This document shows, piece after piece, positions 16,601 through 46,600 of a stretch of 64,000 nucleotides of DNA (positions are counted from its first letter, which is position 1; the number at the start of each line of letters is the position of its first letter). The position numbers are program-made. The stretch is from an uncultured Candidatus Saccharibacteria bacterium (GTDB lineage Bacteria; Patescibacteriota; Saccharimonadia; CAILAD01; BJGX01): assembly GCA_964610335.1 (NCBI GenBank), contig CAZSVP010000002.1:146887-210886 (forward strand), written 5' to 3'.

Positions 16601-19600
16601 GGTCTTCTTGAGCTTGGTCTACCGCTATGCGCTGATCATGTGCAAAGTTTTTAAAGATAGACTGTACTAGTTTGACTTTTTTGGCCTGAATCTTTGGTTT
16701 AAGATCATCGAACTCACATAACAATATTATCTTTGGAAATGGCTCGTCAACCAAGCCAACCAGCTGTTCTGGCTTATTCTTCTGCAAAAACTCGAGCAAG
16801 TGATGGTCTACTACCTCAAGTGCGCTTGGTCCAAGTGGCATGATTTGTTGAACTGCTTCCTGAGCTTTATGTATACTTTCAAAATATCCAGCAAGCAATG
16901 TTGTCTTGGGATTGTATGGGGCTGTGCCAAATGTAATCTCCGTGACCACCCCCAATGTGCCTTGTGACCCTATGATCAACTGACACAAGTCAAAACTTCC
17001 ATCTGACCGCTTGACATCCCACAGATCGTAACCAGCCGAGTTTTTACTGACCTTAAGCTTATGATCGTTGAGTAATTTCCAGTTATCAGTGATTAGCTTA
17101 TCAACCTCACGATACAAATGACCTTCCATATCTTGCTGTTGTTGTTTGCGTTTTAACTCTTTTTTGTTCAGGCGTCTGGTCTGAATAACATCGCCATTGC
17201 ACAACACAACCTTAAGAGATGATACCCATTTGCGTGTTGCACCGTACTTGATGGTCTTCTCGCCAGCGGCATTGTTAGCAACCGCGCCACCTACGCTACA
17301 AAAGTCAATGCTTGCCGGATAAGGAGGCAAAAATCGACCATGGCTATGAAGAACTTGCTGCAAGTTGGAGTAAATCATTCCCGGCTCGACAGTAATAGAA
17401 TCTCGAGCAATTGATTTGAGCTTCTTCATGTGGGCAGGAAATACCAACATTACGCCACTGCCAAGCGCACCGCCACCTTGGTCGGTCCCCTTGCCTCTCG
17501 CTGTGAGCGCAACTGGGTCACCCTCTTGTGCGCGCCAATACAGAAACTTCACTGTATTGACTACATCTACTTCGTTGCGTGGGTAGATTATGACTTCTGG
17601 TGTAGTGGTAAACACACTACCATCGGTGGAAAAGTACTTACGAGTAGACTCAGCAGTAGAAACCTCACCACTTAGTTGGCTCGAAAGATCTTTGAGAAAT
17701 TTTTTCATTGCTACTAGCATAACAATTTTAGATCAATCGAGCAAAACTTGATCTTACGAGTCAAACCAGTTAGGCTTAGAAGTAACACTTATGGCTACAA
17801 AGTCCAAAACACTAGCTAAAATACAGCCTAAAAAGGCACCAAAATATCTTCTCTGGGTACTTGTGGTTGTACTGGTATTTGCAGGAATAGTACTAATAAG
17901 GCAAATATTTGCGAGTAGTATACCTGTATTTGGTGACAACCCAGATTACTGGCGACCCCGTATTGCCCAATGTGAATCAGGTGGTAACTATCAAGCCAGT
18001 AATGGTACACACTTCGGTGCCTATCAATACGATCTAAGAACCTGGAAGGGCGCTGTAGGTCCAGAGCTTGCAGCCCAGTATCCTGATCCGCGCCAAGCAC
18101 CCCCAGCAGTACAGGACCAGGCGTTTTATAACACCTTTGCTCGTCGAGGCACACAACCATGGAATGCCAGCTATCGATGCTGGATCAAGGGTGCAAACGT
18201 GCCATCTGGGTTTGATGACAGCTCCAGTGCAACCAAGCTACCCAATGCAGCTTCGCAGGTGATTACACAAGTTTCTACGCCACCACCCAACCCATTCGGC
18301 ATTACATCAGGTAGTTACAATGTACTAGTAACTGGACGGCTCACGCTCAATAATTCTCCTATTGGTGGTGTTCAGGTACAAACTTGTAGTGGTGATCGTG
18401 TAGCCACTACTGATGCTGATGGAAGGTTTGGATTTGGCATACCCGTCAATAACTCGTTTTGTGTGCGAGTAAACGGTGATTTACCAGCAGGCGCGCGGCT
18501 AGAGCGTACCAACAATACTGTTGAACATGCCAAGGCCGTATCTTACGAAAACCAACGTGCTGGGGTTGACTGCTACCATAGTGTTTGGTGTTTATTGTCT
18601 GATGCCTACACCTGGGATAGACGCGTCGACAACGGCTATAACTTCTTTTACGTCTCGCCATAGAAACTATAATGCGCTAGTACTATCTGGTATAATTGTC
18701 TGATTCGTAAGCCGAAGTGGTGGAATTGGTAGACACGCTAGATTCAGGTTCTAGTGGGCTTCATCGCCCGTGGAGGTTCGAGTCCTCTCTTCGGTACCAA
18801 CGATGTTATCTAAAAAGCATGTTTTAGGTAACATTGTTGGTTTGGACGAGAAACCCAAGGTTCGGCGAACGAGGCGCACAGAGTAAATACTTGAGTTTCA
18901 CTCAAGTATTTGTCGAGCACCGAGTGGAGAAGCCGTAGGCGCTGTACTCTCTTCGGTACCAACGCAATTATTGTTCAACTCGAGCGCGCAGCTGTTTGGT
19001 GGCAAATATATACCATTTTTGAACATCATAAAACCTATCTGATGGCTCTGTAATCTGTTGCAAGTGGAATCCATGTACTATATTGGATTGTGCATAGTAA
19101 TAAAGAGGACTATATAGCACTACGGCTGGTACATCCTTGGACCATTGGGCAACAAAAGCAGTGTATTTTTGCCTCTTATAGTCTGCCTCTTGACCAAGAC
19201 GTGCCGCTTCCAAATTACGATCCACCTCGCTATTCTTGTATTCGGAAAGATTCAAACCAGGGTCTAGCGACTGGCTAGAATGCCAGAAACTATAGACATC
19301 TCCATCATTACCGACATTCTGACCGTACAATACCATGTCATAGTTACGTGATCGCAGTACATCTTGAGCAAATGTTTCAGAATTATGTAAATCCAACTCC
19401 ACATCTATACCAGCCTCTTGCCATTGTTTTTCAATCGCCTTGGCTACTTGTTCATAACTCCCACCACGCACGGTAGCTAGCTTGAACTTCTGGTTTGTTA
19501 TGCCAAGCTTAGCAATTGTAGCTTTGGCAGCTGACTGATCGAATTTGAGGGGATTGGTATCAGGTTGTGAGGCGAATCGATTACTAAGTGGTGTAAGTTG

Positions 19601-43600: not shown

Positions 43601-46600
43601 AATAATCTCTGCCTTCTTGATCTTGGGCAGCAATGATTTACTAGCTAGCCAATAGTAGCTACGATAGGTATAGTAGGAACATATTTTTTCCTCGTTTTTT
43701 TATACTTTGATTACATCAGACTTAATATCTAGTCTACCCTATGGGCACCAAGTAAGATCGCCACCTGTCGGGGCATACTCTCTTACTTCGACCTGCGTAC
43801 CTACAGCGAATGGTCTTTTAGAATCTTTAGCAACTATGTCTGCGCAAGTTTGTTTTACATGTGTATTTGGAAACCATCTCGTATATGGTACGTCGCTTGA
43901 CTGTACCCAATTGCCACTAGAACGAAGGTTAAGTATTGTTATCCCACCCGCCATCGAGGTAAATCCATTGACAGTATCAGGGTAAGCATTTGTGTACGCT
44001 CTAGAGGCTTGACCAAAGCGTACGATGACGATACCAATAACTGCAACCACCACGACCAAAATAAGTGCCATCCACCAACGATATCTAAATTGTCTAGGTT
44101 GACTCGATTTGGCAGTATTTGTTCTGTTCTTGGATTTTGTAGCTATCGGTTTGCTTACCTTTATTACTAATGCTGTTATGTTTGTACTTATTATAGATTG
44201 TTAATCAGTAATATCAAGGTCGTTAGCTCATCCATAAGTGATTTTTACCGTACGTATTTGCATTTTGTCTATATAAACCAGCAACAAGTTAATAAGCTAG
44301 ATCTCAAAAATATTGAGCCTGCTACACGTAATGTTGTGACCCATGTCGAAGTAGAAGCTAAACTTAAATAGATTTTGTCAGGCATGATTACGAACGCTCC
44401 TGTTTGAAGTATGTTTATTAAGAAGTCTCGTTACGCCACAAAAAAATAAACAGTAAAAAAACTCTCGCCTGGGATCTAGATGATTGTTTTACATTTCGAG
44501 TGTTACTGACACTGGACAGTGATCACTGCCCATCTGTTCAGCATGGATCTCAGCCTTTTTGATCTTGGGCACCAGTGATTTACTGGCTAGCCAGTAATCT
44601 ATGCGCCAACCCACGTTGTTAGCCCGCGCATTGGCCCAGTGCGTCCACCAGCTGTAGTGACCATTGCCCTGGGTGAAGATGCGAAATGTATCGACAAATC
44701 CAGCATCAATAAAGTTATCAAAACCTTCGCGCTCCTCCGCAGTAAATCCCTTTTTACCGACATTTGGCTTAGGTCGAGCTAGATCGTCTTCGGTGTGGGC
44801 CACATTTAAGTCCCCACAGAACAGTACTGGCTTGGTCTTTTCCAGGCTTTTGCAATATTCCAAAAAGGCCGGATCCCAGTGCTCATGCCGCAGTGGTATG
44901 CGGCTAAGATCGTCTTTGGCGTTGGGCGTATAAACTGTTACTACCCAAAACTTGTCAAATTCGGCCGCAATTACCCGACCCTCGGTACTGCTATCACGAT
45001 CGGCATGATCAGTTAGGTTGTATTTCTTAGCAATCGCATCGGGAAAACCATTTACCACCTGGATTGGCTCAACCTTGGAGAAAATTGCAGTACCACTGTA
45101 TCCCTTCTTTACAGCCGAATTCCAAGCTTCGTGATAGCCAGGTAGCTCGATCTCGACTTGATCTCGCTGTGCCTTAGTCTCTTGCAGGCAAAGTATGTCT
45201 GGGCTGTATTTCTTTATGAACTTTTGGAATTCACCTTTTTTGATAACGGCGCGAATGCCGTTTACGTTCCAGGAAAATAGGTTAATCATGGAGCAATTGT
45301 ACCAAAATCTGTAAGTAAAAACGACGGAACCCCCGGCAGGGAGCCCCGCCAGGGGTGTTTGTTATGACTCGAAGGACTCCAGCTCAGCGATAGCACGTCC
45401 GAAGTCCATCATCAGCTGGTATCGCGGCGAGGAGACCATCCGACCGTAGGCAACTTTGCTGGTATGCGTGCCAACCTGTCTCACCGACCGACGATCTCGC
45501 GACATTGCCACGGTCCACTGCGTGATGTCAGGATCGCCATCGCCGAGCTCCTGAAGCAGCATACGCAGCTGATCCACCGAAACAGTGTCCACTCCTGAGC
45601 GAACCCGAAAAATCAGCGTATGAGTATATGCGCTGGCTGGCACAGAGCCACCTACCGCACCGGCTCAAAGCGCTGCTTGTTCGACTCCATGCGCTGTTGC
45701 CACGCTGCCACCGGATCTACTTGCAATGCCTCAGCCATGATCTCAGCCAGCACCAGCAAGTTGCCAATCACGCTCTCACGTACCTCTGTGGCGTCAAGCG
45801 GATCACCATGCTCGAAGTCGTGAGCTGCATCAATCACTACGCCACCGTATCGATGCACATCACGAGCTAGCTGCTGCCACCAATCCCGCTGGCTAGCCTC
45901 GCTTTCATCACTGATTCGACTCGCATGCCCCTCAAGATCGAAGTGCTCGTTGACCCGAGACTGACTAGCACGCTGGTATGCGACTCCAGGATCCACACCA
46001 GTTGCACAACTGAGCTGAAGTGCGTGCATCAGTACATCGGGCATCACAGCGCTACGTAGCTGGTCCATGGCAACTTGGCTCAGATCTTCAGCAGCCCGCT
46101 CGATGCGGCGCACACAGCGGTCTAAATGGATCGCAATGTGCCGCATCCGCTCTGCGTACACCATGAGAAGCCAATAGCTCTCGTCGTACATCGCTTGCTG
46201 CTGACGCAGAGCGAACAGATCTTGGGTTTCGAAAAAGTATGGCATGGTTGCTCCCATATCGAGGTTCGGATAGTTGCATTGTTGCGAACTAAATACATTG
46301 TGCAAGAAATTGATATACAACACAAACATAAGTTTTACATACCAAAATTGCCGCACCAAAAGCACGGCTACTAATCATTTAGAGATTAAAACCACAAGCG
46401 GACGGTTTTGATATACACAATCAAACTAACCGGCCGCTTGCAAGATTTTTATCTCGAACAACACAGCAATTCCTTGGTGTTAATGATTAAACTAACTATT
46501 GATTTTTAGGGTGCAGGCCTTTGAAAGCCTTGGTTTGCATGCGCTCAGCTCGCATTGCCCACTTGGTAGCCATTTCATCGAGTAAATCCTCGACAACTTG

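Follow-up and report, generated by a model that had tools for sequence, protein, structure and literature searches.

The window analyzed here is a stretch of 64,000 nucleotides (nt) from an uncultured Candidatus Saccharibacteria bacterium (contig CAZSVP010000002.1, positions 146,887 to 210,886). Within it, five genes encode proteins that open with the same leader, a basic N-terminal region followed by a membrane helix with conserved motifs, and continue into unrelated domains, here called cargoes (table 1; genes are named by their lowest coordinate). The first-pass annotation of this DNA described six such genes and, in addition, a protein with a related segment at its C-terminus. All seven open reading frames (ORFs) are present where it placed them, and its domain assignments hold: the product of 17791 has a transglycosylase-like domain (PF06737; Rpf-like), that of 29644 a Peptidase_M23 domain (PF01551, 1.8e-19), and that of 30918 a CHAP domain (PF05257), and the products of 28610, 29298, and 43739 have no Pfam match. 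The leader probably represents a conserved-motif class of signal peptide, and it extends far beyond the window.

Membership of the Leader Family

Leave-one-out hidden Markov models (HMMs) of the six N-termini were searched against all 690 stop-to-stop ORFs of the window. The held-out leaders of 30918 (E = 2.2e-15), 43739 (E = 3.6e-13), and 29644 (E = 1.5e-08) were recovered, as were those of 29298 and 28610, which were removed together (E = 1.4e-14 and 1.5e-14, respectively). A second HMM, built from 74 leaders of which the majority are from database proteins, scored these five genes at 56–70 bits and no remaining ORF of the window above about 9 bits. The SBP_bac_5 protein at 18968 and the DsbA-like protein at 41455 (membrane-anchored) did not score against the leader HMM. 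The five genes are solid members of the family, and their shared leader is real.

The claim of a leader common to six genes thus holds for five (held-out E ≤ 1.5e-08) and is marginal for 17791, which was recovered at E = 0.0088 when the top-scoring nonmember ORFs gave E = 0.009 to 0.2, and which the 74-leader HMM scores at 9.1 bits (E = 0.034). The N-terminus of 17791 keeps the G...R...A register and a "TLAK.Q" N-region; WW and RFS are absent and the helix is four residues shorter. No transglycosylase domain occurs among the 150 best database matches of the leader, and 17791 is no more than a marginal or degenerate relative. Membership of the C-terminal tail of 32827 is not supported (6.2 bits, E = 0.27); it belongs to a separate, C-terminally tail-anchored family. 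Its counterparts at the syntenic position in two related loci (L001, 488–1036; L026, 5061–5699) have a low-complexity region and then a C-terminal membrane helix, and they resemble one another; neither matches 32827 (BLAST, E ≤ 1e-3). Proteins of the 32827 type combine a long Pro/Thr/Ala-rich low-complexity region with a tail anchor and always lie between thioredoxin reductase and glutaredoxin.

Table 1. Coordinates of leader genes, compared proteins, and neighboring genes in the window and in related loci
Feature	Locus	Coordinates	Strand	Score or remark
Leader of 28610–29251, residues 1–42, MPTKKSSTLAKQQKQHFKWYYAIILIGIVAIVGILLLRFSNA	Window	29126..29251	-	63.5 bits
Leader of 29298–29603, residues 1–42	Window	29478..29603	-	69.2 bits
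Leader of M23 peptidase gene 29644–30858, residues 1–48, MPKTKKTKTRVANTGTVKTKIHVGWLMATLLIAAVAIVGVVVIRLSQA	Window	30715..30858	-	55.7 bits
Leader of CHAP gene 30918–32477, residues 1–42, GTG start, SKTKSTLLAKQHKSHFQWWVGLIIVCVVAIAGIFILRFSRA	Window	32352..32477	-	59.1 bits
Leader of gene 43739–44146, 47 codons, IATKSKNRTNTAKSSQPRQFRYRWWMALILVVVVAVIGIVIVRFGQA	Window	44006..44146	-	69.9 bits
N-terminus of 17791–18663, residues 1–41	Window	17791..17913	+	Basic N-region and membrane helix; Rpf-like transglycosylase
114-residue protein with C-terminal tail anchor	Window	32827..33171	-	Outside the leader family
Thioredoxin-like (CPHC), VKOR-like, and DsbA-like (CPAC) genes, in a row between leader genes	Window	40662..42135	-	Translations read for motifs
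Lnt-like gene	L025	1329–2918		
Lnt-like gene	L028	4919–6484		
Lnt-like gene	L027	2359–3939		
Lnt-like gene	L003	1914–3533		
Lnt-like gene	L010	1503–3149		
Lnt-like gene	L002	6590–7939		
Lnt-like gene	L024	3–722		

Gene starts and cargoes of the members differ in detail. The M23 gene most likely starts at ATG 30858 (MPKTKK...) instead of TTG 30915, because the contig of a 99%-identical relative (L036) carries a gene call of 404 amino acids (aa). In the CHAP family, the leader is present in every one of orthologues P0001 and P0003–P0007; orthologue P0002 is N-terminally truncated and retains the membrane helix and the RFSRA end. The cargo of 28610 is 171 aa long, and the gene has four orthologues only, all with the leader. 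The cargo of 29298 is a 59-aa peptide with four Cys and that of 43739 is 87 aa with two Cys. None of ATG, GTG, and TTG precedes the leader of gene 43739; position 44133, where the first-pass annotation ended the gene, is no start codon, and the first ATG (44071) falls within the leader, just ahead of the membrane helix. The in-frame leader opens at ATA 44146 (IATKSKNRT...), with a plausible AAAGG ribosome-binding site 11 nt upstream, and database members of the family begin with a called Met. The ATA is either a rare noncanonical start or a sign of early gene decay.

Distribution of the Leader

An exhaustive search with the leader profile among 1.84 billion representatives returned 236 clusters (50% identity) at E ≤ 1e-3, 69 of them at E ≤ 1e-10. 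Nearly all matches begin within the first few residues, in proteins of 60–633 aa. A word-indexed search with the six-leader alignment came back empty, which is due to the index and to the E-value scale for a 45-residue profile, and does not reflect absence.

A scan of genomes, one per species of GTDB, with a degenerate nucleotide pattern that encodes F[KQ]F[RK]WWM[AG] yielded HMM-confirmed matches only in metagenome-assembled genomes (MAGs) of Candidatus Saccharibacteria and in unclassified MAGs of the same synteny, at least nine MAGs in all. Eleven pattern matches in other phyla gave no leader-like HMM match; the sole one to score (L004) matched just the pattern residues. Viral contigs had no match to the same pattern. 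The arrays contain as many as six leader genes within 8 kb (L032, L002, and L028), and the fragments retrieved from a single MAG include at least 14. A Saccharibacteria MAG shares synteny with the window, in the order grx, CHAP, the leader genes, uvrB, uvrA, uvrC, and secG.

No Pfam-A model covers the leader in the window proteins or in the 150 best database matches, and NCBIfam has no leader model for the window proteins (E ≤ 1) or, among 25 of 39 matched families, for those 150 relatives. Full-text searches by motif or topic found no paper that describes it. The recurrence of one leader on small secreted domains that are unrelated and mostly unknown points to a specialized, as yet undescribed signal for secretion and not to a family of cell-wall enzymes.

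Leader Anatomy

We derived the anatomy of the leader from the 150 best matches, anchored on an invariant Ala that is numbered −1, as at a cleavage site. The leader has a median of 47 residues, typically 45–50, and nearly all 150 matches begin at or near residue 1. A disordered, Lys/Ser/Thr-rich N-region of variable length (median net charge of +7, range 3–15) ends in F-x-F-[RK]-W-W and leads into a core of 28 residues, after which the boundary is sharp. The core consensus is F-x-F-x-W-W-M-[AG]-x-x-L-V-x-x-V-A-x-x-G-x-x-x-x-R-F-S-x-A. The motifs quoted in the first-pass annotation, H-F-K/Q-W-Y/W and ...VGI..LRF, map to invariant or near-invariant positions.

W(−23), G(−9), and A(−1) are invariant, the last also in a separate MAFFT alignment (A2), and an Ala of the hydrophobic core is nearly so. 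Position −5 is R in 89% of sequences, −4 is F or Y in 88%, and −3 is S in 98%. The spacing from W to A is the same in 150 of 150, with zero insertions or deletions. The h-region comprises 17 residues (−22 to −6), of which 73% are I, L, V, M, or F and none in any sequence is D or E; such a length is long, yet typical for monoderm (single-membrane) bacteria. Conservation within the helix has a periodicity that peaks at 90–100 degrees (permutation p = 1e-4), and therefore one helix face is conserved. The polar c-region, R-F-S-x-A, is followed by Ser, Gly, or Ala in 93% of sequences and by Pro in none of the 150. At A(−1) the information content is 3.7 bits; it declines to 1.7 at +1, 1.0 at +2, and about 0.2 from +3 on.

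Selection, Modularity, and Turnover

The similarity among leaders reflects old divergence under purifying selection on the peptide and not recent duplication, because synonymous sites are saturated and nonsynonymous differences are fewer. For all ten pairs of window leaders, differences amount to 0.67–1.0 of synonymous sites and 0.08–0.46 of nonsynonymous sites. The leader cores of 28610 and 29298 (28 aa) are 89% identical in amino acids and 71% in nucleotides. The saturated synonymous sites rule out recent duplication as an explanation and, together with the 236 database clusters, show that the similarity reaches beyond recent tandem duplicates, a confinement that the first-pass annotation had raised as the outcome that would tell against its proposal.

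Its view of the leader as a swappable module independent of cargo is supported: the leader is fused to CHAP, M23, VanY, subtilase S8, GDSL, PG_binding_1, and many unknown domains. The DNA similarity of 28610 and 29298 likewise respects the module, running from the ribosome-binding site, about 13 nt before the ATG, to just past the Ala-Gly codons that close the leader. Mean core identity is 0.61 for unrelated cargoes in the same genome, 0.59 for homologous cargoes in different genomes, and 0.57 for unrelated cargoes in different genomes (p about 1e-5, indicative only because pairs are nonindependent). Three window genes with unrelated cargoes have in common a short N-region variant, STLAKQxKxHF[KQ]W[YW], and orthologues of those cargoes in other genomes have the canonical ...LTQFKF[RQ]WW form. 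The N-region variant follows the genome and not the cargo.

The leader genes seem to undergo birth-and-death turnover at a fixed island, because cargoes in the same slot differ between genomes and some copies are decaying. In the slot between trxB/grx and uvrB, the window has leader-bearing genes for CHAP, M23, a 101-aa protein, and a 213-aa protein; L001 has CHAP, a 219-aa protein, and a 180-aa protein; and L026 has a protein with only the N-terminal domain of the M23 protein and a member of the 43739 family. In related MAGs, leader genes that are degenerate or truncated include one with its helix deleted (L022, 3238–3699), a fragment (L002, 896–1030), and L008, 2184–2339; the ATA start of 43739 may be a case within the window.

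Cargo Domains

Cargoes of 154 sequences fall into 65 groups that BLAST does not link, including 40 singletons, and the mature part has a median length of 116 residues. In the 150 relatives, Pfam recognizes CHAP in seven, PG_binding_1 in five, M23 in two, and VanY, DUF4185, GDSL, Big_7, PD40, and DUF3472 in one each. A subtilase (S8) and a GDSL esterase are also among the cargoes of related loci. The first-pass annotation called the family cell-wall-active, which is too narrow: about 10 of the 150 best relatives have a peptidoglycan-related domain and about 130 have no Pfam domain. Peptidoglycan hydrolases make up about 10% of cargoes; in the window, two of the five members (CHAP and M23) have a peptidoglycan-active domain. 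PHROGs gave no match for the cargo domains. A second hydrophobic segment occurs in the mature part of 1 of 150 and LPxTG in none.

Of cargoes that contain Cys, 91% have an even number, mostly two or four. The thioredoxin-like, VKOR-like, and DsbA-like genes that lie between leader genes in the window (table 1) probably encode extracytoplasmic disulfide-forming machinery, which fits these even counts; Pfam support is confined to the thioredoxin-like gene, as a weak Thioredoxin match on its L036 counterpart. The 43739 family is predicted to be a small beta-barrel with two invariant Cys (family alignment A6); its AlphaFold2 model (predicted local distance difference test, pLDDT, 76) has no significant fold match. 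The model of the 28610 cargo is all-beta and, at a pLDDT of 52, unusable.

A motif, [LV]WKI[ST]RE[VI], lies near the C-terminus of the 28610 protein (28610–28680) and of the CHAP protein (30918–30990), with P0097 also listed, and a similar FNMTRTI closes the precatalytic domain of the M23 protein (30180–30260). A beta domain common to 28610, the C-terminus of the CHAP protein, and the N-domain of the M23 protein was considered and rejected as nonsignificant (BLAST E of 0.014 over 11 residues; HMM E of 0.8).

A Putative Export Signal

The leader is predicted to be an export signal, the only sensible reading because the layout is tripartite, the recognizable cargoes are extracytoplasmic, Cys counts are even, and probable DsbA, VKOR, and thioredoxin-like genes lie between the members. 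The features of the Sec/signal peptidase I class are present: a basic N-region, an uninterrupted h-region, small uncharged side chains at −3 and −1, and a +1 position that is never Pro. We favor, with moderate confidence, a lineage-specific and specialized Sec-type export signal with a putative S-x-A site for signal peptidase I. Cleavage at this site is favored because the invariant S-x-A is followed by S, G, or A and never by Pro, and because conservation collapses past it. The same arrays also contain a small number of candidate signal peptides of the classical short type, chosen by eye and with a crude heuristic. This agrees with the view that the long leader forms a class of its own and is not simply a lineage-wide look of signal peptides.

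Several points weigh against this interpretation. Export and cleavage are both putative. The terminal aromatics (WW ... RF), the outer Arg, and a span of 17–19 residues would also suit a retained anchor. In a few relatives, the motif lies 45–65 residues into the protein, a placement that cleaved signal peptides seldom show. No gene for a dedicated peptidase or translocase was seen beside the arrays, and no signal peptidase, sortase, or rhomboid was seen in the window or around the arrays, where the neighbors are Lnt-like, SpoU, ROK, HtrA-like, and SNase genes. Lastly, the restriction to Saccharibacteria derives from one degenerate DNA pattern and nine or more MAGs.

The foremost alternative is that the leader is an uncleaved N-terminal signal-anchor of type II topology that tethers the cargo at the surface of the epibiont, with the conserved helix face packing against a partner or itself. 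This was the view preferred in the first-pass annotation; it is possible, and we rate it as unlikely. With W-W and R-F/Y on either side, the hydrophobic span looks like a stable membrane helix with its aromatic and charged belts, and the alpha-helical periodicity of conservation, the invariant Gly, and the conserved Ala would suit a packed face. Some members have long cytoplasmic N-regions, and AlphaFold2 models a continuous helix through the RF(S/G)xA segment. An anchor, however, needs neither an invariant small-x-small site followed by S, G, or A nor the avoidance of Pro at +1, and conservation collapses within two residues of that site. Many cargoes are domains of 55–100 aa that start directly after the site, without a stalk, and a 17-residue h-region with a 5-residue polar c-region fits the signal peptides of Gram-positive bacteria. 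The label of signal-anchor is not established, since the invariant S-x-A and the loss of conservation beyond it fit a cleaved signal peptide at least equally well.

It is improbable that the leader is an ordinary Sec signal peptide whose similarity reflects nothing but common descent of a paralogous gene family. The n-h-c layout and the S-x-A site are generic, and tandem arrays suggest duplication. Signal peptides, however, normally outpace mature domains in their evolution; here, leaders are about 0.6 identical and cargoes are unalignable. Saturated synonymous sites, a 28-residue core that is free of indels in all 150 sequences, and a periodic conserved face also argue against an ordinary signal, as does the coexistence of a few candidate classical signal peptides in the same loci. 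The fusion to unrelated folds (CHAP, M23, VanY, S8, and GDSL) implies that the leader was joined to different genes several times.

Comparison With Known Signal Classes

That the leader belongs to a special class already known is highly unlikely. Some features invite the comparison: the motif at the boundary of the n- and h-regions and a basic residue in the c-region are like those of twin-arginine translocation (Tat) signals, the Ala and Gly positions in the helix resemble the alpha1-N helix of pilins, and peptidoglycan hydrolase cargoes are typical of signal-arrest-release (SAR) endolysins. The defining features of each class were looked for and are absent. Regarding Tat, only two of the 150 have a twin Arg in the N-region, the consensus F-K-F-R-W-W has a single basic residue, and the h-region is strongly hydrophobic. 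Regarding lipoproteins (signal peptidase II), Cys is at +1 in 1 of 150. Type IV prepilins are rejected because W-W is at the equivalent of Gly(−1), there is no Glu(+5), none of the 150 helices has an acidic residue, and there is no match to the N_methyl model of Pfam. Regarding SAR endolysins, G, A, S, and T are 26% of the helix and I, L, V, M, and F are 73%, no cargo matches a PHROG, and viral contigs gave no match to the leader pattern. The YSIRK-G/S model (PF04650) matches none of the window proteins or the 150 relatives. The KxYKxGKxW (TIGR03715) and SipW-cognate (TIGR04088) models are absent for the window proteins (E ≤ 1) and among 25 of the 39 families matched by the 150 relatives. MmpS (PF05423) scores 19.5 bits on the window CHAP protein against a cut-off of 21, with one more subthreshold match in the 150 (E about 1e-3). 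Because the features of Tat, lipoprotein, prepilin, YSIRK, KxYKxGKxW, SipW, SAR, and MmpS signals are lacking, the leader is predicted to function like a specialized signal peptide yet to fall outside all the described classes compared.

By analogy, the best reading is that the leader is functionally comparable to the YSIRK-G/S signal (PF04650, IPR005877) of staphylococci, streptococci, and lactobacilli, which routes staphylococcal surface proteins to a particular site. That signal is believed to determine the place or manner of secretion (PMC12445088). Both are N-terminal signals with a motif that opens the hydrophobic core and small residues within it, and both are common to many otherwise unrelated surface or secreted proteins. 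The two are unrelated in sequence, however, and the leader has a much longer N-region, a fixed 28-residue core, a conserved R-F-S-x-A, cargoes without LPxTG, and a host lineage of Saccharibacteria.

Other systems show likenesses as well. The KxYKxGKxW signal of glycoproteins exported by the accessory Sec system (SecA2/SecY2) also has an extended basic N-region, a Lys/aromatic motif, and glycines in the core, which in that signal are important for function, but the motifs do not align, the leader cargoes are small and contain Cys instead of being serine-rich repeat glycoproteins, and no accessory Sec genes were seen near leader genes. SipW-cognate signals, and others with a dedicated peptidase, are likewise a subclass in a genome that also uses generic signals, implying a cognate processing enzyme, but the window and 22 related loci revealed no additional gene for a signal peptidase. 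Conotoxin precursors share a targeting segment better conserved than the cargo, small disulfide-rich cargoes, and large clustered families that turn over, and the order of basic cluster, helix, and motif in the leader is the mirror image of LPXTG and PEP-CTERM C-terminal sorting signals; these are analogies only, from other organisms or the other protein end, without homology. MmpS of Mycobacterium has a W, a hydrophobic helix with Gly, and an Arg at its outer end, but is a single domain family and not a swappable leader, and its weak matches are in two proteins only.

The weakest alternative takes the conserved 5' block for an element that acts as nucleic acid, whether as a recombination cassette, a regulatory RNA, or a translational signal. 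It draws on the repeated block of about 146 nt with its ribosome-binding region and on arrays with variable 3' ends that resemble antigenic-variation loci, but is effectively refuted because copies in the window are only 46–71% identical in nucleotides, too low for homologous recombination, with saturated third positions and conserved amino acids, the signature of selection on protein.

Proposed Mechanism

Under the favored interpretation of a specialized Sec-type signal, the basic tail and the positive-inside rule would hold the N-terminus in the cytoplasm and SecYEG would translocate the C-terminal cargo. A type I signal peptidase would most likely cut after S-x-A and free the cargo, which would be oxidized outside the cell by the DsbA/VKOR system. 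A specific membrane component, such as a dedicated peptidase, a translocon partner, or a localization factor, is suggested to read the core, because core length is fixed, one helix face is conserved, and conservation exceeds that of any cargo. The signal would serve a large and fast-turnover extracytoplasmic repertoire, with a minority of peptidoglycan hydrolases, proteases, and esterases and a majority that may be small disulfide-bonded beta domains with no assigned function.

An epibiont context is plausible because syntenic relatives are Candidatus Saccharibacteria MAGs and cultivated Patescibacteria are all episymbionts, as reported (PMC11623550). In an epibiont, the cargoes could plausibly be factors of wall remodeling and of interaction with the host surface. 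A bolder and tentative extension, to which we give a probability well below even, is that the leader is the address tag of a dedicated and so far undescribed sorting pathway, seen to date only in Saccharibacteria. The reader of the helix face and of R-F-S-x-A could then be a specialized peptidase, a translocon partner, or an Lnt-like acyltransferase, and would process, modify, or localize a rapidly diversifying set of lytic enzymes and small, disulfide-bonded effectors, such as at the point of contact with the host. Genome-specific drift of the leader would reflect coevolution with this reader.

Implications

Saccharibacteria and other Patescibacteria live attached to host bacteria, and the means by which they attach, remodel walls, and extract resources are largely unexplained. 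The majority of their surface and secreted proteins lack annotation. As a tag, the leader would allow candidate host-interaction factors to be listed directly from these genomes, and it points to a specialized secretion or sorting step that could be probed through a small set of invariant residues. For reporters, it may offer a natural export tag in those few strains that are open to genetic manipulation. If it is merely a signal peptide typical of the lineage, it would still be a useful annotation model, missing from Pfam and NCBIfam.

Neighboring Genes and Other Features of the Window

A homologue of the apolipoprotein N-acyltransferase Lnt lies inside leader arrays of other Saccharibacteria MAGs, at seven related loci, and is the sole recurrent envelope neighbor (table 1). 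Pfam identifies LNT_N and CN_hydrolase in two of the seven; the other five were assigned from similar N-termini. The Lnt-like gene adjoins a gene for a 213-aa Big_7 protein in which a leader-like helix (...VVAVTGLLVLRFSRASEQG) lies about 65 residues into the chain. A lipobox Cys is absent from the leader proteins, and the Lnt-like gene as a candidate reader is a lead and not evidence.

In the window, a gene for a 324-aa polytopic membrane protein (42576–43550), with no match in Pfam or PHROGs, is convergent with 43739, their 3' ends being about 190 nt apart. The end of the window (61400–64000), which includes a PurH-like ORF on the minus strand (62296–63840), has a guanine-plus-cytosine (GC) content of about 60% versus about 45% elsewhere, and could stem from horizontal transfer, such as from a host of high GC, or from a chimeric assembly. 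Toward the other end, a large serine recombinase gene (5801–7312, minus strand) and several unknown ORFs lie beside a tRNA cluster (5218–5809), and the region from 5218 to 9822 is probably an integrated mobile element.

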